Shown here: in pieces, positions 4,593 to 59,097 of the stretch | Position numbering within the stretch: position 1 is the first letter of the stretch | Layout: every line of letters starts with the position of its first letter | Assembly (NCBI GenBank): GCA_038114285.1 | Contig: JAYNQN010000007.1 | Span: 4,786-68,785, forward strand | Length of the DNA: 64,000 bases | Direction of reading: 5' to 3' | Source: Gammaproteobacteria bacterium | GTDB taxonomy: Bacteria; Pseudomonadota; Gammaproteobacteria; Poriferisulfidales; GCA-002705445 | Program-made: the position numbers and the translations under genes | Notes under the pieces: model-generated | Database searches by the model: none | Seen by the model: the letters and a program-made list of their open reading frames with translations, nothing else | Told to the model about the DNA's origin: nothing

Positions 4593-5063
4593 TTATATTT
4601 TAGTTACCAAATCTTGTATTGCTTTATCATGAACTTTTTTATCAATTTCTTTTTTTAATATCATTTCTGCGCCTTCAACAACTAACTTCGATACATCTTG
4701 CTTTAAAGACTCTTTTAATCTCATAGCTAACTGATCAACTTCTTGTTCTGCAAGCTTTAATTTTTTTGATGCCTCTTCAGATGCTTTGGTATTAGCTTCA
4801 TCTAATATATCGCCTTGTCTTTTTTCTGCCATAGAAACGATATTTTTTGCTTCGGTCTTAGCCTCGGCAATTTTAGATTCTACTTCTAACTTAGCTTTTT
4901 CTAAAGCTTGTTGACCAAGTTCTGCGGCAGACAAACCATCAGAAATAGTTTTTTTTCTTTGTTCTAAAGCTGATGTAATTGGTGGCCATACATATTTCAT
5001 GCAGAACCAAACAAATATAGCAAAAGATATTGCTTGACCAATTAAAGTTAAATTTATATTCAA
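4593..5063 (-). CDS. atpF: ATP synthase Fo subunit b
   Basis: 156 aa with an N-terminal TM helix followed by a long charged helix. Confidence 0.88.
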
Positions 5064-5088: not shown

Positions 5089-5331
<243 letters not shown>

Positions 5332-5361
5332 CTACTTTTATATTGTCATTAAAAAAAATAC

Positions 5362-6566
<1,205 letters not shown>

Positions 6567-6691
6567 AATCTCTTCGGGTATGAAGTATATTAAGAGTGTA
6601 AAAATTTATCAATATATTTAATGATGATATCGATAAATTTAATATATATATTGCAATTTTGACCAATTATTAGCCTATTTTCTATAAAAAA

Positions 6692-7564
6692 TTATTTTTT
6701 ATAGCCAAGTTTTTTTAAAAGCCCCTCTAAAACATCTAAATTACTATATTTTAATGTAATTTTACCATTATTTTTCAATGTAGAATGGCTAATGTCTACC
6801 TGTATACCTAGTTTTTCTCTCAACTGATTTTCTATTTCGTCTATATGCTTATCTTTTTTATTTTTTCCCTGTCTTTTTATCTTATTTTTGCTGCCCTCAA
6901 AAACCATTTTTTCTATATCTCTTACAGAAAGTTTTAATGAGACTACTTTATCTGCATAAATTTTTTGTGAAGATTTGCTTAAGGTCAGTAACGCCCTGGC
7001 ATGCCCCATATCTATTTTTTTTTGCTCTAATAAGCCTATTACATAGTTATCTAGTGATAACAACCTAATTAAATTTGCGATATGTGACCTTGATTTTCCA
7101 GTTTTTTTTGCAAGTGCTTCTTGTGTAAATTTAAATTTTTTTATAAGCTTTTCTAAACCTATTGCTTCTTCAACCGGATTGAGGTTTTCTCTTTGAACAT
7201 TCTCTAACAATGCATAAATAGCAGCTGATTCATCAGATATTGATTTTAAAATAGCAGGAATTTTTTTCATCCCTAAAATTTTGACAGCTCTTAATCTTCT
7301 TTCTCCTGCAATAAGTTCGTATTTATTTTTATCACTTTTTCTTACTAATATTGGCTGTATGACTCCTTGTTCTCTTATAGATTCTACAAGTGACTTGAGA
7401 TTTTCTTCATCAAAATTTGTTCTTGGCTGGAAAGGACTTGTAATAATTGCTGATGTTTCTATGTTGAGTGATAATTTTTCTGATGAATCTGACTTATTAA
7501 CACTAGAAGAGCTTAGAAGAACTTCTACTCCTTTGCTACCTAATCCACCTTTTTTTTTAGCCAT
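6692..7564 (-). CDS. parB: Chromosome partitioning protein ParB
   Basis: 290 aa with the ParB-box GERRLRA and an HTH. It lies downstream of parA. Confidence 0.9.
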   Translation of the reverse strand: MAKKKGGLGSKGVEVLLSSSSVNKSDSSEKLSLNIETSAIITSPFQPRTNFDEENLKSLVESIREQGVIQPILVRKSDKNKYELIAGERRLRAVKILGMKKIPAILKSISDESAAIYALLENVQRENLNPVEEAIGLEKLIKKFKFTQEALAKKTGKSRSHIANLIRLLSLDNYVIGLLEQKKIDMGHARALLTLSKSSQKIYADKVVSLKLSVRDIEKMVFEGSKNKIKRQGKNKKDKHIDEIENQLREKLGIQVDISHSTLKNNGKITLKYSNLDVLEGLLKKLGYKK

Positions 7565-52752: not shown

Positions 52753-53425
52753 CCAAGAAAAAATATATAGCATTTTACTTGTTTTCTTTATAACTATGAT
52801 AGTTTTAACCAATATTATCGGCGTAAAGTTATTTGAAATATTTCCGAATCTTTTAAAAAATCCTATTACTTTAACTACTGGTATTATTACTTATCCAATA
52901 ACATTTTTAATTACAGATATTGTTTGTGAAGTTTTCGGCAAGAAGAAAGCTAGTTTGATGGTAGTTTTTGGATTTTTTGCAAGTTTATTGTCTCTCTTTT
53001 TTATAAATATCTCAGTAATCCTTCCAGGATCTGAAGTTTGGATAAATAATTCTTTAGGATATAAATCAGTGTATGAAATGCAAACTGCTTATGAGTCAGT
53101 ATTTACATTACCAGGATTTTTAATATCTGCCTCTATGTTGGCATATTTAGTATCACAATTAATTGATGTTCGTATTTTTCATTTTTTAAAAAATTTAACA
53201 AATGGGAAAAAATTATGGCTAAGGAACAATATATCAACAATTTTTTCGCAGTTAGTTGATACAATTATTGTTAACACAATATTTTTATATTTAGGATTAA
53301 ATTTAGAGTGGAGCATTATAATAGAGATTATAATTGCTAGTTATATTTTTAAAGTTTTGATAGCAATGTTAGATACGCCATTAGTATATATTGGGGTAAA
53401 ATATATTAGGAGATATGTTAATTAG
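52745..53425 (+). CDS. YhhQ/DUF165-family queuosine-precursor transporter
   Basis: 226 aa with six TM segments. The family assignment is from recall. Confidence 0.55.
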   Translation: MNNQEKIYSILLVFFITMIVLTNIIGVKLFEIFPNLLKNPITLTTGIITYPITFLITDIVCEVFGKKKASLMVVFGFFASLLSLFFINISVILPGSEVWINNSLGYKSVYEMQTAYESVFTLPGFLISASMLAYLVSQLIDVRIFHFLKNLTNGKKLWLRNNISTIFSQLVDTIIVNTIFLYLGLNLEWSIIIEIIIASYIFKVLIAMLDTPLVYIGVKYIRRYVN

Positions 53426-54176
53426 ATTTATTAATTTTTTTTTTCACCTTTAAATCAACGTATTTCATTACTGTTGTTTCATATCTTAGAAGTGCCAATG
53501 TAAAACCTACCGCTCCATCAAGAAAACCTAGTTTTAAGAAATACATTTTAATAAATGCCCAATATCCTCTTAGTATACCTATAAATAGACCACCAGTTTT
53601 TTTACTAACATTTTGTGTGCTCCATGCGTCAATATATAAGCTCATTTTTTGATAGTAATCTTTCATACTTTTATATGTATCATGATAAAGAATCCCAGAA
53701 ATTTTCACAGGCTTATGATCTTCAGGAATTATCAAAGTTTCATGTACCAAGGCATCATTATATGTAGTTAAATTATTAGGATAAATTCTATTAATCCAAT
53801 CAGGAAACCATCCAGAATGTCTTATTTCACAACCAAAAGCCTTGCTTAATCTATTTATTTGATAAATTTTTGGTTCTTTATTGATAATTCTTTTAACTGA
53901 TTTTTGTAAATCTTCACTAATTTCTTCGTCTGCATCAAGCATAAATATCCAATCTGAGGTTGAGAGTTTTTGAGCATTTTGACGTTGCTTGCCAAAGCCT
54001 GGCCAAGATGATGATTTATGAATATTATTAGTATATTTTTTTGCTATCTCTAGTGTGCGGTCAGTGCTTCCAGAATCTAATATAATTATTTCATTAGCCC
54101 AAACCGAACTTTTAAGAGCTCTTTCAATAAACTCTTCACCATTTTTAACAATTATTATAATGCTTATAGTTTTCAT
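53418..54176 (-). CDS. Family 2 glycosyltransferase
   Basis: The N-terminus ISIIIIVKNGE...DSGSTD is GT2. The likely start is MKTISIII at 54176. The track start at 54200 would run into the tRNA. Confidence 0.75.
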   Translation of the reverse strand: MKTISIIIIVKNGEEFIERALKSSVWANEIIILDSGSTDRTLEIAKKYTNNIHKSSSWPGFGKQRQNAQKLSTSDWIFMLDADEEISEDLQKSVKRIINKEPKIYQINRLSKAFGCEIRHSGWFPDWINRIYPNNLTTYNDALVHETLIIPEDHKPVKISGILYHDTYKSMKDYYQKMSLYIDAWSTQNVSKKTGGLFIGILRGYWAFIKMYFLKLGFLDGAVGFTLALLRYETTVMKYVDLKVKKKINKSN

Positions 54177-54199
54177 CTTTAAGAAAATTATAGCATACA

Positions 54200-54276
54200 T
54201 GGTGGCCCCGGTAGGACTCGAACCTACGACAAATGGATTATGAGTCCACTGCTCTAACCAACTGAGCTACAGGGCC
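54200..54276 (-). tRNA. tRNA with CAU anticodon (elongator Met or lysidine-modified Ile2)
   Basis: GGCCCTGTAGCTCAGTTGGTTAGAGCAGTGGACTCATAATCCATTTGTCGTAGGTTCGAGTCCTACCGGGGCCACCA. A G1:C72 pair means it is not an initiator. The 3' CCA is encoded. Confidence 0.85.
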
Positions 54277-54358
54277 ATGTAAGATAAAAGTTAACATTAA
54301 TTAAAAATAGATTATATCACAATTACTTTTAAAAACTTCTTGAATAAGCGAGGTTTAA

Positions 54359-54393
54359 ATAAAAAAACCACCATCTAGGTTTCTAAATGGTGG
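54359..54393 (-). terminator. Rho-independent terminator of the His-rich OMP gene
   Basis: On the minus strand CCACCAT-loop-ATGGTGG is followed by T7. Confidence 0.7.
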
Positions 54394-54422
54394 ATTTATT
54401 AGAAGTCCGAAGTATTTACAAT

Positions 54423-55574
54423 TTATAGCTCATAAACGTATTTAAGGCCTAAACCAAATCTTTCTGTAACTTCATCTTCTTCGTCTGTGCGCTTAAATCC
54501 AAAGTCTACGATTAAAGAGTTAGATATAGCATAACCAACTGAAATCTGAAGTAACTTCCCATCATGATTTTCGTCTGGTTCTTCTGGCGCATCGTTATCA
54601 ACAAATGTATATGTAGTAGCAAAATTCCAAGGATACATTTTTAAACCTAAAGAAGTTGTGAAATATGTTCTATCATGTGCCTCTTCTCCAGAATAATGCT
54701 CAATATCCATATATTCAAAAATTAAAGTTTTGCTTATTCCTTTTGAAAAGTTTTCTTTATAGCCAGCTGATATAGAGTATCTAACTTCATCTTCTTCGTT
54801 ACCTATTCCTGCTTTTTGAAAAGCATAGCCAAGTCTATAAAAAATCCTTTCTGCTATATTGTTATCTAACGAATAAAATTCCTTACCGCTGATAGATATT
54901 GCATATGAATCAAAGTCTTCTGTATTTGCTAACCCTCCATCTTCCTTACTTGTGTGACCTCTTTGATCAATTAAGGAATCACTTAAGAATGTTGTATCAG
55001 CAAAGAAAGAGCTAATATTTATTTGATGGGTACCAAAGTCTTCAAGATTTGCAGAATATTTGAACCCTGCCCCAATGCGCTCTGCAATTTTATATTCCTC
55101 AATCATTGAGTATGAATAAAGTCCTGGGAAGCTATGATAATCTAGACCAACTTTAGGGTTAAATTTTCCTATATACGCCGAAAAGTTTTCATTGCTGTAA
55201 GTTAAAGTTAAGCTTTCAACAACTAATGGATGATCTTCAAAAAATCTACTATTACCATCATGTGTTCTTCTAATGCCACCATGTGAGTGACCGCCGGGCT
55301 CACCTTCAATCTTGAGGTTTGTGTCAATATTAAAACCTTCTGCAATCCTTGATCCAAGCTCTATGTGAGAATGAGTGTAAATTTCATTAACTTCTTCATC
55401 GCCCTCGCCTGCATCACTAATATGATCAGCATGAAGACGTATACTAATATGCCCATAAAAAGGTTCATCTGAGTGTGCTGAATGATCATGATCATGCTCG
55501 TCATCTGCTGCAAAACTAACACCTTGAAAAAGGAAAGCTAGTATAAAAAATTTTATAAGTAATTTTATTTTCAT
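54423..55574 (-). CDS. His-rich outer-membrane beta-barrel protein, putatively Zur-regulated
   Basis: Signal peptide. The mature N-terminus is ADDEHDHDHSAHSDE, with further His clusters. Beta-strand periodicity and a C-terminal aromatic-rich YVYEL. A Zur box lies 34 nt upstream. Confidence 0.55.
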   Translation of the reverse strand: MKIKLLIKFFILAFLFQGVSFAADDEHDHDHSAHSDEPFYGHISIRLHADHISDAGEGDEEVNEIYTHSHIELGSRIAEGFNIDTNLKIEGEPGGHSHGGIRRTHDGNSRFFEDHPLVVESLTLTYSNENFSAYIGKFNPKVGLDYHSFPGLYSYSMIEEYKIAERIGAGFKYSANLEDFGTHQINISSFFADTTFLSDSLIDQRGHTSKEDGGLANTEDFDSYAISISGKEFYSLDNNIAERIFYRLGYAFQKAGIGNEEDEVRYSISAGYKENFSKGISKTLIFEYMDIEHYSGEEAHDRTYFTTSLGLKMYPWNFATTYTFVDNDAPEEPDENHDGKLLQISVGYAISNSLIVDFGFKRTDEEDEVTERFGLGLKYVYEL

Positions 55575-55607
55575 TGATTTTTACGCTCGATTATTATGTA
55601 AGCACGT

Positions 55608-55626
55608 AATGTTATATTATAACATT
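55608..55626. promoter_or_regulatory. Zur box palindrome AATGTTATATTATAACATT
   Basis: Perfect inverted repeat matching the gammaproteobacterial Zur consensus core. It sits in the promoter of the His-rich OMP. Confidence 0.65.
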
Positions 55627-55660
55627 TAATTGTCAACAATTAATCCTTTGTTGTTTAGCT

Positions 55661-56458
55661 TTAGGGATTTTTTTTAGAAATAAATGAGAAGATTGATACA
55701 AATATAAATATTATAGTAGATGCGACAACTATCGAAGGCCCAGATGGAGTATCTAAATATAAAGAACTATAAATTCCAATAATAACTGCTAGTACAGCTA
55801 ATGCTGAAGAAATTATTGCCATATTTTCAGGGGAATTAGCAAGTTGTCTAGAAGTAGCAGCAGGAATAATTAGTAAAGATGTTATAAGTAGCAAACCAAC
55901 AATTTTAAACGAAACAGCAACAACAATGGTCATTAGTAACATTATTAGCAATTGATTTAGCAAAACATTAATACCTTCTGCTCTAGCTAATTTTTCATCA
56001 ATTGTCATTAAAACAAAAGAAGACCAATTGAAATAAATAAAAACTGATACAAGAAATCCTCCAAATATAATGAGATATATTTCAGTAGCTGTAACAGCCA
56101 AAATATCGCCGAATAAATAGGAGTGAAGATCAATACTGTTCTCAAGCAAGCTTAAAGTTACCATCCCAACCGAGAGGGCTGAGTGAGCTAGAATTCCTAG
56201 AAGTGTATCAGTCGCTAAAATATTCTTCTGTTGTAACCAAATTAAAACAACAGCAAAAATAGAGCATATAATTATCGTGCCTAAGTTGGTACTAATTCCC
56301 ATAACAAGGCCTAGGGCAACACCAAGTAAAGCACTATGAGCTAAGGAGTCACCGAAATATGCCATTTTCCTCCAAACGACAAAGCACCCAATAGCCCCAG
56401 CAATTATGGCAACACCTATTCCGGCAATTATTGCCCTGATGATAAATGCTTCAGTCAT
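55661..56458 (-). CDS. znuB: Zinc ABC transporter permease
   Basis: 265 aa polytopic protein. Confidence 0.9.
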   Translation of the reverse strand: MTEAFIIRAIIAGIGVAIIAGAIGCFVVWRKMAYFGDSLAHSALLGVALGLVMGISTNLGTIIICSIFAVVLIWLQQKNILATDTLLGILAHSALSVGMVTLSLLENSIDLHSYLFGDILAVTATEIYLIIFGGFLVSVFIYFNWSSFVLMTIDEKLARAEGINVLLNQLLIMLLMTIVVAVSFKIVGLLLITSLLIIPAATSRQLANSPENMAIISSALAVLAVIIGIYSSLYLDTPSGPSIVVASTIIFIFVSIFSFISKKNP

Positions 56459-57179
56459 TTATTATCTCTTGATGAGAATGATTATGTGTATGCTGATATA
56501 CAGACATCATCTTTGCCATATCGTTACCAAATAATGATATAAACTCAGGGTCTTTTGCGACTATTTGTGGTTCTCCTGAACAGCATACATGATGATATAA
56601 ACATATAACCTGTCTTGTTGAGGACATTACCATATGAAGATCATGGGAAACCATAAGAATACTTAAGTCTCTATCTTTATAAATTTTGTTTAGTAGATTA
56701 TAGAAATTTAATTGATTTTTTATATCAAGATTTTGAGCTGGCTCATCTAGAATAAGTAATTCTGGTTTATTCAAAAGGCTTCTTGCTAAAAGTACTTTTT
56801 GGAGCTCACCTCCAGATAATGTTGACAAGTGTTTACCAAGAATTTCTGAGATATTTGTTTCTCTTGAAATGTCTATCAATTCTTTAGATGTGAATTTTTT
56901 TTTTAATGTTAAGAATCTTTTTACACTAATTGGCATAGAATTATCTGGAGAAAAATTTTGTGGTATATAGCCAATAGAAAGATTATTTTTTTTTATTATC
57001 TTGCCACTATCTGGCAAAAAAGAACCCATTAAGCATTCTAGTAAAACAGATTTTCCCGCACCATTTGGACCAATGATAGTTATAAAATCATTTTTTTTAA
57101 TATTAACAAATACGTTTTCTAAAATATTTTTATTATTTCTATTAACGCATAAATTTTTGGCTTCAATTAAAAGAGACAT
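56451..57179 (-). CDS. znuC: Zinc ABC transporter ATPase
   Basis: Walker A GPNGAGKS and LSGGE. Confidence 0.9.
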   Translation of the reverse strand: MSLLIEAKNLCVNRNNKNILENVFVNIKKNDFITIIGPNGAGKSVLLECLMGSFLPDSGKIIKKNNLSIGYIPQNFSPDNSMPISVKRFLTLKKKFTSKELIDISRETNISEILGKHLSTLSGGELQKVLLARSLLNKPELLILDEPAQNLDIKNQLNFYNLLNKIYKDRDLSILMVSHDLHMVMSSTRQVICLYHHVCCSGEPQIVAKDPEFISLFGNDMAKMMSVYQHTHNHSHQEIIND

Positions 57180-57638
57180 TTAATTAATACATTCCTGGCA
57201 AACGCCCGAGATTTCAAATGTGACTTGATTTGGCTTGAAATTATTTTTTACTGTTGTAGATGTAACAACTTTATCTATCTTTTCTGAGCAACACTCTTCT
57301 ATGTTTTGGCATTTTTTGCAAATTAAAAAATAACATTCTTTGTGTTCATTGGGGTGAGCGCAGCCTATGTAAGCGTTTAAACTTTGAATTTTATGGATAA
57401 AGCCATTTTCTATTAAAAAATCTAGAGTTCTATATATAGTTGGTGGTTTCGCCGCAGGATCAATTTGTTTCAGTTCTTCAAGAAGATCATATGCTTTAAC
57501 ATAACTGTGACTTTTCCATATAAGCTTTAAAACTCTTTGTCTAAGCTTAGTTAACTTGAGTTCTTTTTGTTTACATATAGTCTCAACTTTTTTTAATGTT
57601 TCGTTGACACATGTTTTATGATTCTTACAAGTGCTCAT
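57180..57638 (-). CDS. zur: Zinc uptake regulator (Fur family)
   Basis: C-terminal CxxC...CQEC. The likely ATG start is at 57638. The track start is a TTG 4 codons further upstream. Confidence 0.8.
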   Translation of the reverse strand: MSTCKNHKTCVNETLKKVETICKQKELKLTKLRQRVLKLIWKSHSYVKAYDLLEELKQIDPAAKPPTIYRTLDFLIENGFIHKIQSLNAYIGCAHPNEHKECYFLICKKCQNIEECCSEKIDKVVTSTTVKNNFKPNQVTFEISGVCQECIN

Positions 57639-57666
57639 TTTTCCCCACAATGATGTTGAATTAAAT

Positions 57667-57683
57667 TATGTTATAATATAACA
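57667..57683. promoter_or_regulatory. Zur box palindrome ATGTTATAATATAACAT
   Basis: Perfect 17-bp palindrome in the divergent zur-znuCB / znuA promoter. Confidence 0.7.
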
Positions 57684-57716
57684 TTTGTTTCAACTTATAA
57701 TCATAGGATAACATGT

Positions 57717-58625
57717 ATGTACAAAAAGACATTGTTTATAATTTTCAGTTACATTATTTATAATAATGCTTTTTCAAGCGAAATTGTCGCGAGCGTTAAA
57801 CCACTTCATTCTCTAGTGGAGGCAGTTGCTGGAGGCAAAAACTCTGTATCATTACTTATAGATGGAAGTATGTCTCCTCATAATTTTTCTCTTAAACCAT
57901 CACATGCAAAATTATTAAATAATGCAAAAATTGTATTTTATATCGATAATCAACTTGAGTCAGCGCAAAAAAAAACAATTATAGGATTGCCATCTAAAGT
58001 TAGAGTAGTAAAAGTTTCTCAAACTAAAAATCTAAAACTTTTTCCAGTAAGATCTGGAGATAATTGGGAAGAGGATGGTCATGATCACCATCGCCACCAT
58101 GATCATGGATCAAATGATGTCCACTTCTGGCTAGACCCATATAATGCTATTCAGATTATCAAAGGAATTGTTCGTCAGCTAAGCATTGTTTACCCAGAAA
58201 ATATTACTTTTTATAAAAAGAATGCAAAGAATATTATAAAAAAAATTAAGGAAACAGATAATTTTATAAAGTCTAAATTAAAGTCTATAAATGAAAAACC
58301 ATATATTGTTTTCCATGATGCTTATCAGTATTTTGAAAAAGCATATAATTTAAAACCTGTTGGCTCTATACTTTTGGACCCTGAGATACCTGCCTCACCA
58401 AAAAGAATCATCAAGATAAGATCAAAAATTAAAGCATTAAATGCAAGCTGCGTTTTTAAAGAGCCTCAGTTTAAAGCAAAAATAGTTAATACAGTAATAG
58501 AGGATATGGATGTCAATGTAGGGACTTTAGATCCGTTGGGTGCGGATTTAGACCATGGCCCAGATATGTATAATAATCTTTTAAAATCAATCGCTGATAA
58601 TTTAGTCACATGTTTAGAAATGTGA
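57717..58625 (+). CDS. znuA: Periplasmic zinc-binding protein ZnuA
   Basis: 302 aa with a His-rich loop EEDGHDHHRHHDHGSNDVHFW. Confidence 0.9.
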   Translation: MYKKTLFIIFSYIIYNNAFSSEIVASVKPLHSLVEAVAGGKNSVSLLIDGSMSPHNFSLKPSHAKLLNNAKIVFYIDNQLESAQKKTIIGLPSKVRVVKVSQTKNLKLFPVRSGDNWEEDGHDHHRHHDHGSNDVHFWLDPYNAIQIIKGIVRQLSIVYPENITFYKKNAKNIIKKIKETDNFIKSKLKSINEKPYIVFHDAYQYFEKAYNLKPVGSILLDPEIPASPKRIIKIRSKIKALNASCVFKEPQFKAKIVNTVIEDMDVNVGTLDPLGADLDHGPDMYNNLLKSIADNLVTCLEM

Positions 58626-58731
58626 ATATCAATATATAAAGATAAAATTCATAATACTAATAATAATCATTTGCAATTGAGAATGACTTGCATTATTATT
58701 ATAGAAATTAATAATATTTGAGGCAAAACAA

Positions 58732-59097
58732 ATGAAAAGAATAATTAGTTTTATGGTTTTTTTAATACTTTCCCAAAATACATTTGCAGGAAGCTATATA
58801 ACAACAAAGCATGAATTTAAATCAAAAGACTCAGATTATAATAAAACAGTTAATCAAATAAGATTTGGATATGATAAAAAGATTAAAAATTCAACATACT
58901 ACATAGAAATAGGTGGTGGAGAGACTTTACCAAATGGCAAGAGCCTTGGAAGCGGACAAAGTATAATTTCTTATGAACTAGGATTTAAAAAAAAGGTTAA
59001 TGATAAATTTTCATTCAAGATTCAATATGAAGGCAAAAATTATACTGATACATATTTAGATCATGAACTGGAGTTAGAAACAAAATATCGATTTTAA
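58732..59097 (+). CDS. Small secreted beta-rich protein with a C-terminal Phe (OMP-like)
   Basis: 121 aa with a signal peptide, alternating hydrophobic residues and terminal YRF. Confidence 0.35.
   Translation: MKRIISFMVFLILSQNTFAGSYITTKHEFKSKDSDYNKTVNQIRFGYDKKIKNSTYYIEIGGGETLPNGKSLGSGQSIISYELGFKKKVNDKFSFKIQYEGKNYTDTYLDHELELETKYRF

Follow-up and report, generated by a model that had tools for sequence, protein, structure and literature searches.

In Gram-negative bacteria without a ZnuD-type receptor, the crossing of zinc through the outer membrane is still credited to probable non-specific porins (PMC4176598, PMC3516566, PMC3323870), and reviews and regulon papers let zinc enter through non-specific porins or TonB-dependent receptors (PMC3516566, PMC4176598, PMC6103462, PMC3323870). 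Here we analyze a stretch of 64,000 nucleotides (nt) from a gammaproteobacterial contig (GenBank assembly GCA_038114285.1, JAYNQN010000007.1, positions 4,786 to 68,785 of the forward strand), referred to as the window, in which zur and the znuABC genes are joined by a gene for a His-rich protein of 383 amino acids (aa). We propose, with a probability of about 0.62, that the product of this gene is a porin of the outer membrane that is specialised for the entry of zinc and made together with ZnuABC under zinc scarcity. It is highly probable that the protein is a porin under Zur control whose function is linked to ZnuABC, and a specific mechanism, in which a ladder of His residues selects zinc, is favoured on balance. 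A preliminary description of the locus had suggested a distinct Zur-controlled outer-membrane zinc-acquisition channel. Our sequence analysis supports this suggestion through a consensus Zur box, the linkage to znu, a barrel fold and a His signature, from which we infer transport.

The functionally closest system is MnoP of Bradyrhizobium japonicum (Hohle et al. 2011, as cited in PMC6011978, PMC9334652 and PMC3449104). According to these accounts, MnoP is a Mur-regulated outer-membrane Mn2+ channel, which is induced by manganese limitation and coupled to MntH; it is passive, and in liposomes it is selective for Mn2+ and not for Co2+ or Cu2+. Both are thus scarcity-induced metal channels co-regulated with an inner-membrane importer, the window porin by prediction: in genomic terms, its Zur box and its linkage to znuABC indicate control by the cognate metalloregulator and coupling to the importer. 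The two differ in metal and regulator (manganese and Mur versus zinc and Zur), and these accounts of MnoP report no His ladder.

MspD of Mycobacterium smegmatis, the only Zur-regulated porin found in our literature search, is induced when cells starve for zinc or lack zur and has an accessory role beside ZnuABC (PMC13098993). It parallels the window porin, for which Zur regulation alongside ZnuABC is predicted. In contrast, MspD has the MspA-type mycobacterial fold and resides in the mycomembrane, unrelated to a 16-stranded proteobacterial porin; it closely copies a general porin and is encoded outside the znu locus, whereas the window porin belongs to a predicted His-lined clade and is embedded in znu.

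The ZnuD/ZnuK-type receptors of Neisseria, Acinetobacter and Caulobacter also provide Zur-regulated outer-membrane zinc entry that feeds ZnuABC (PMC2895646, PMC3516566, PMC4176598). These receptors are TonB-energised, plugged 22-strand barrels of about 700–800 aa, whereas the 383-aa protein is a 16-stranded barrel that lacks both plug and TonB box and must therefore transport passively. Membership in the ZnuD/TonB-dependent receptors is therefore rejected on size and fold, and the earlier remark that the protein is far too short for such a receptor stands.

Among classical 16-stranded porins, OprP/OprO (PDB 2o4v, 4rjw) and VhChiP (5mdo) share 8–12% identity with the window porin. Their lining is Arg/Lys, whereas His/Glu/Asp is predicted for the window porin, and they respond to Pho or chitin signals instead of Zur. 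Structurally, OprP is the best analogue of a ladder of residues that confer specificity. Metal-regulated porins are thus known already (MnoP, MspD), and what appears new here is the predicted zinc-specific, His-lined design inside a znu locus; no published description of a Zur-regulated, His-rich proteobacterial porin was found in a search that took in few subscription papers and did not extend to RegPrecise.

The features of the locus are as follows.

57180..57650, minus strand: zur, Fur-family zinc uptake regulator (Pfam FUR, 1e-14; NCBIfam Zur NF008646, 3.3e-37)
56451..57179, minus strand: znuC, ATP-binding cassette (ABC) ATPase, between zur and znuB (Pfam ABC_tran, 5.8e-24)
55661..56458, minus strand: znuB, ABC-3 permease (Pfam ABC-3, 3.6e-68)
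57717..58625, plus strand: znuA, periplasmic zinc-binding protein (Pfam ZnuA, 3.2e-61; NCBIfam NF007091, 1e-65)
54423..55574, minus strand: 383-aa His-rich 16-stranded porin, candidate zinc channel
57668..57684: Zur box 1, 17-nt perfect palindrome ATGTTATAATATAACAT, in the zur-znuCB / znuA divergent promoter region
55608..55626: Zur box 2, 19-nt perfect palindrome AATGTTATATTATAACATT, upstream of the porin ATG
55609..55636, minus strand: sigma-70-like promoter TTGACA-16-TAACAT of the porin gene (10/12 consensus matches)
54368..54393, minus strand: intrinsic terminator at the end of the porin transcript, an 11-bp stem followed by a T-run

The znuA gene diverges from zur, znuC, znuB and the 383-aa gene, all four of which lie on the minus strand. 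For the regulator, the NCBIfam Zur model gives the best match, at 127.8 bits under a curated cut-off of 167, and the Fur and PerR models reach 2.3e-12 or weaker. ZnuA contains a His-rich loop EEDGHDHHRHHDHGSNDV.

The two perfect palindromes of the preliminary description were located, one at 57668–57684 in the divergent promoter and the other at 55608–55626, 34 nt upstream of the porin ATG at 55574. They are the only sites in the window within three mismatches of either pattern, and the observed match count of the 19-mer was reached in none of 100 dinucleotide shuffles (shuffle mean 0.38). Box 2 agrees at 19 of 19 positions with AATGTTATAWTATAACATT, the published 19-bp consensus of gammaproteobacterial Zur boxes (PMC3516566). 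In box 1, 16 nt are identical to the core of the A. baumannii znuA/zur probe, which Zur binds in a zinc-dependent manner in electrophoretic mobility shift assays (PMC3516566). Box 1 overlaps a promoter-like TTGAAA-17-CATAAT on the minus strand. Box 2 covers the spacer and the -10 hexamer of the porin promoter as placed by consensus scan, which makes it a putative Zur operator overlapping the porin core promoter, where Zur would be expected to bind. Within 54200–58800, the terminator behind the porin gene is the sole terminator-like site. With none between znuB and the porin gene, transcription from zur-znuCB may also read through into the latter.

The 383-aa open reading frame (ORF) is real, with 228 homologues at E<=1e-3, which are called "hypothetical protein" or "porin" where they are named. 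Its segments and motifs are listed with the strands (beta-1 to beta-16) and loops of the model described below.

55509..55574, minus strand: signal peptide MKIKLLIKFFILAFLFQGVSFA, residues 1–22, with cleavage placed by the -3/-1 rule
55461..55508, minus strand: mature N-terminal His/Asp tail ADDEHDHDHSAHSDEP, predicted to be disordered and periplasmic
55365..55379, minus strand: YTHSH motif of strand beta-2, with invariant H68 and H70, predicted to face the lumen
55281..55307, minus strand: EGEPGGHSH, from the end of beta-3 to the start of loop L2, with E90, E92, H96 and H98
55080..55160, minus strand: long loop L3, residues 139–165, with a short helix and D145, H147, E159, E160 and Y161
54669..54689, minus strand: GEEAHDR motif, loop L6 and the start of beta-12, with E297, H300, D301 and R302

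The signal peptide and the His-rich start of the mature protein agree with the preliminary description, whereas the likely cleavage, between SFA and ADDEH, falls one residue earlier than the "DDEH..." given there. The periplasmic side of the tail is assigned from porin topology. In total the protein has 19 His residues. They form the cluster HDHDHSAH (27–34) and three further clusters, HADH (48–51), THSH (67–70) and GHSH (95–98), as had been claimed, in addition to single His residues.

The protein had also been suspected to be a beta-barrel. An AlphaFold2 model, run on a 35-sequence alignment, indeed shows 16 strands, with a mean predicted local distance difference test (pLDDT) score of 78.8 and a predicted template modelling (pTM) score of 0.78. 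Strands and loops were taken from DSSP of the model. The strand connections comprise 8, 2, 26, 2, 27, 5, 30, 12, 9, 2, 8, 2, 10, 4 and 2 residues, so long and short connections alternate as in classical porins. The model is structurally similar to solved porins, and its best matches include VhChiP, OprP and DcaP. Three regions fall below a pLDDT of 50, namely residues 15–34 (the signal-peptide end plus the His/Asp tail), 95–102 (GHSHGG) and 206–217 (part of loop L4). The 383-aa protein matches no NCBIfam model and, by sequence search, no PDB chain; some orthologues carry a precomputed match to PF13609. The model presents the 383-aa protein as a divergent classical 16-stranded porin and not as a new fold.

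To follow the gene in other organisms, we scanned one genome per species and obtained 56 loci. The carriers include AT-rich marine Gammaproteobacteria, the relatives of the window (72–83% identity), and alphaproteobacterial Sneathiella, Parvibaculaceae, Thalassobaculaceae, SAR116, Rhodospirillaceae and Nisaea. Among the cultured carriers are Sneathiella litorea, S. chungangensis and S. glossodoripedis. Further carriers are metagenome-assembled genomes (MAGs) with the deposited labels Thermodesulfobacteriota, Spirochaetales or "bacterium". In 47 of the 56 loci a znu or zur gene, detected by tblastn with the Zur, ZnuA, ZnuB and ZnuC of the window, lies within 2.6 kb of the porin gene. The genes stand in at least three orders: znuA<>zur-znuC-znuB-porin, znuA<>porin(-zur) and znuA<>porin-znuC-znuB. 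Since the linkage is kept through rearrangement across classes, it is strong evidence for a shared function.

The operator is conserved along with the linkage. A box within two mismatches of TGTTATANTATAACA occurs upstream of the porin in 51 of the 56 loci, mostly starting 33–65 nt before the start codon; its alphaproteobacterial variant is GTTATGTTATAAC. Elsewhere in the 627 kb of these loci there are only 30 such boxes, and these include the boxes in the znuA-zur promoters of the same loci. Nine loci have no znu gene nearby; in seven of these a box is retained at up to three mismatches, and the box of an eighth, L037, is weaker and of the alpha type. Three porins lack a box of their own (L031, L034, L054). 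Each of these loci has a Zur-like palindrome in its znuA-zur intergenic region, and the porin gene follows znuB after only about 75–110 nt, a spacing that suggests co-transcription of the two genes. In effect, all 56 orthologues would be under a Zur-type operator, which lies in front of the porin gene itself or of the first gene of its operon.

Two loci differ in arrangement. In Sneathiella sp. HT1-7 (L027), the porin gene (6001–7146) stands near a phage-integrase fragment (5106–5402, plus strand) and helix-turn-helix regulators, and no znu gene adjoins it; the porin keeps a Zur box with one mismatch at -40, suggesting relocation with the operator intact. In the gammaproteobacterial MAG NAT271 (NZYO01), two copies of the His-rich porin lie on different contigs (L012 and L010), each with a perfect Zur box at -38, and may represent a pair of paralogues or a mixture of strains in the bin.

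Aligning the window protein with its 56 orthologues (57 sequences, 34–98% identity) revealed a signature of potential metal ligands. H68, H70, E90, E92, H98 and H300 are invariant in 57/57. H96 and R265 are found in 56, H147, E297, D301 and R302 in 55, H42 in 54, H27 in 53 and H29 in 45. The number of His residues per protein ranges from 14 to 38.

The lumen face was assigned from the strand boundaries of the model and from the alternation of hydrophobic residues in the family alignment. By this alternation, the lumen face comprises Y40, H42, H48 and D50 on beta-1, E64, Y66, H68, H70 and E72 on beta-2, and E90 on beta-3. Under the usual porin topology, the model would place H68/H70 next to E90/E92, both in the barrel's upper half, H96/H98 at the opening of L2, D145/H147 on L3 and E297/H300/D301 at L6, with H42 and the HDHDH tail at the periplasmic end. 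L3 is highly conserved in the family alignment and is, by analogy, presumed to be the constriction loop that folds into the pore. In OmpF-type porins, the wall from beta-1 to beta-6 opposite L3 bears a cluster of basic residues. In the 383-aa porin, metal ligands are predicted to take the place of this cluster.

Some members carry low-complexity insertions of 60–130 residues, rich in His/Asp/Glu, in L2, L7 or the N-terminus, and some of these end in C-terminal HxH tags such as ...GHDGHVH. The carriers of insertions or tags, from the His clade and from intermediate sequences, are P0085, P0069, P0094, P0125, P0126, P0131 and P0132. Judged from their sequence, the insertions and tags may act as surface antennae that capture metal. 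Surface loops rich in His and Asp are a theme of the ZnuD structure as well.

Relatives outside the His clade provide a natural control. A profile search of 1.8 billion representatives of clusters at 50% identity returned 900 clusters at E<=1e-3 and 711 at E<=1e-10, a family that is unnamed and mostly marine. Its distant clusters retain GKFxPxxG, PGxxG, EDYE..ERIG, FFxDTxFLSxS..RG..DGGxSNT and H183. Sister clades (P0143, P0147–P0158; loci L058–L082) share 28–34% identity over the whole barrel and do not have the His signature: K/T/E/D or gaps occupy those columns, the site of EGEPGGHSH reads "EPV" followed by a gap, the H147 column holds D or E, and each protein has 2–11 His residues.

The 25 metagenome loci of these non-His porins were collected with a profile from a four-sequence alignment, and none of them contains znuA, znuB or zur. 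Instead, other metal-related elements appear. Upstream Fur boxes, scored against GATAATGATAATCATTATC, match at 18/19 in L075 (GATAATGACAATCATTATC), 17/19 in L072 and 15/19 in L066, about 130, 164 and 115 nt upstream of the porin match, respectively. Several other non-His loci have 14/19 matches, above the local background, and Fur/Mur-like TTGCAAAT motifs were seen, by eye only, upstream in high-GC alphaproteobacterial contigs. A gene for an imelysin (Peptidase_M75) lies directly downstream in seven non-His loci and nearby in L074, and none was found among the His-clade loci. The combination of Fur-box porin and imelysin suggests an iron-related module. In four non-His loci, a full-length cobalamin riboswitch (Rfam RF00174, 95–113 bits) precedes the porin on the coding strand.

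L060, 1392–1591, plus strand: cobalamin riboswitch just upstream of the porin
L077, 895–1093, plus strand: cobalamin riboswitch just upstream of the porin
L080, 1825–2024, plus strand: cobalamin riboswitch just upstream of the porin
L081, 450–648, plus strand: cobalamin riboswitch just upstream of the porin

Their position implies that these porins are cobalt- or cobalamin-related outer-membrane channels. L074 is an exception: this non-His locus (61% GC) has a perfect Zur-like palindrome of the alphaproteobacterial type, AATGTTATAACATT, at 4859–4872, ahead of the first in-frame ATG at 4887, with a bacterioferritin-like gene and the imelysin gene close by. Because of this locus, the division by regulator and ligand signature is strong without being absolute. 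The homologue search with a sister-clade protein named no Bradyrhizobium, the host of MnoP, among its top 120 hits, a weak negative.

Taken together, the clades suggest that the whole porin family works in the acquisition of trace metals, with the His set as a zinc-specific adaptation. A bolder and more tentative view, which we hold at somewhat less than even odds, is that the family consists of dedicated trace-metal gates, whose lumen ligands are tuned by clade and which are wired to separate sensors (Zur, Fur with imelysin, or the cobalamin riboswitch). The His clade would then be the long-missing TonB-independent part of the ZnuABC pathway in the outer membrane, its "histidine ladder" stripping Zn2+ and relaying it to ZnuA.

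The sister clades bear directly on the strongest rival, a general diffusion porin that is induced by zinc starvation and raises permeability without metal selectivity, its His residues being structural or incidental. The fold is that of general porins, the textbook view lets Zn2+ cross through non-selective porins (PMC4176598, PMC3516566), and the Zur-regulated MspD of M. smegmatis has an accessory role only. However, six His/Glu positions would hardly stay fixed in 57 of 57 sequences down to 34% identity (34–98%) if they were incidental, and it is at precisely these six that the clade departs from its Fur- and B12-wired sisters. The recurrence of His-rich low-complexity insertions in the extracellular loops of some members is likewise unexpected for a non-selective pore. 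We consider a general porin unlikely.

A second rival gives the His residues a role but not that of a free-ion channel: the protein might capture or buffer zinc at the surface, or conduct a complex of zinc with a ligand such as a zincophore or amino acid. The 14–38 His residues per protein and the insertions of 60–130 residues in L2, L7 or the N-terminus (P0085, P0094, P0125, P0126) suit such a role, zinc in seawater is mostly organically complexed (PMC3323870), and the substrate-specific porins VhChiP, OprP and DcaP are among the best structural matches. On the other hand, the conserved neighbours identified are znuA, zur and znuCB, with no metallophore biosynthesis gene among them, and the invariant residues sit on predicted lumen-facing strands as well as in loops, which fits passage better than surface binding. 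We judge this rival improbable. A role in uptake of another divalent metal (Ni, Co, Mn, Cu), or in PcoB/CopB-like export or protection with mere co-location beside znu, is very improbable: His/Asp/Glu ligands are not zinc-specific and the sister clades appear tied to iron and cobalt/cobalamin, but the consensus Zur box persists also at loci where the gene no longer adjoins znu, the linked ZnuA carries a His-rich loop of the kind typical for zinc-specific ZnuA proteins, uptake functions are what Zur normally represses (PMC6103462), and the protein matches neither Pfam CopB nor another efflux family, so that PcoB/CopB-like efflux is rejected on the missing family match and on the uptake role that the Zur box implies.

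For the zinc-specialised porin that we favour, the following mechanism can be envisaged. When zinc is replete, Zn-Zur would sit on the 19-bp box of the porin promoter and on the box of the divergent zur/znuA promoter and repress both. As zinc falls, Zur would leave, and the porin, ZnuA and ZnuBC would be derepressed together. The channel would be a 16-stranded, probably trimeric porin with H42, H48, D50, H68, H70, E72 and E90 of beta-1 to beta-3 in its lumen, joined by E92, H96 and H98 at the start of L2, D145 and H147 on the presumed constriction loop L3, and E297, H300 and D301 at L6. These ligands may form a chain of weak Zn2+ sites, the "histidine ladder", which would bind free Zn2+ or take the ion over from weak ligands and pass it inward, along a gradient that the periplasmic ZnuA, with its high affinity, keeps steep. 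Transfer of the metal to the His loop of ZnuA may fall to the HDHDH tail, disordered and periplasmic by prediction.

Several points weigh against this reading. The family is known here from genomics and predicted structure. The only Pfam match of the window protein is Porin_4 (PF13609), at 18.9 bits against a gathering threshold of 27 (E 1.4e-3) and confined to the C-terminal third, and its C-terminus, ...YVYEL, has Leu where an aromatic residue is usual; most orthologues outside the clade of the window end in F, and the close relatives of the window end in L, a few in M. The lumen face depends on alternation and topology, and the His-rich segments are of low confidence (pLDDT <50). A passive pore cannot concentrate sub-nanomolar zinc, and at the very low free Zn2+ of seawater any gain over general porins hinges on the presumed chemistry of the binding sites. 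His/Asp/Glu sites alone do not discriminate zinc from Ni, Co or Cu.

With these points weighed, the His-porin is still a strong candidate for the step of zinc uptake that is missing at the outer membrane. The locus offers a concrete form for that step, a small porin with invariant His/Glu residues and its own consensus Zur box, and the candidate is strengthened by a znuABC linkage that is conserved across classes despite rearrangement. The His-porin is common in ocean metagenomes. Where zinc is scarce and genomes are streamlined, as in the ocean, an inexpensive passive gate would be of consequence for the biogeochemistry of trace metals. Wired to Fur and to riboswitches, the sister clades serve as built-in comparisons for the metal selectivity of porins, a question otherwise addressed mainly with MnoP, and the cultured Sneathiella carriers make genetics and biochemistry feasible.

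Two features at the edges of the locus remain to be described. A 121-aa protein with a signal peptide is encoded at 58732–59097 (plus strand), 106 nt downstream of znuA, and matches Pfam Phage_OMP PF24653 (cyanophage outer membrane protein-like beta-barrel) at 6.8e-19. As it is kept in only two of the 56 loci, and there not adjoining znuA, we rejected it as a part of the zinc system, and it is probably unrelated to the locus. On the other side, a tRNA-Met (CAT) at 54200–54276 (minus strand) lies between the porin terminator and an ORF of glycosyltransferase family 2 (53418..54200). The 3' end of the tRNA abuts or overlaps the listed start of this ORF, and therefore the true start is probably further downstream.

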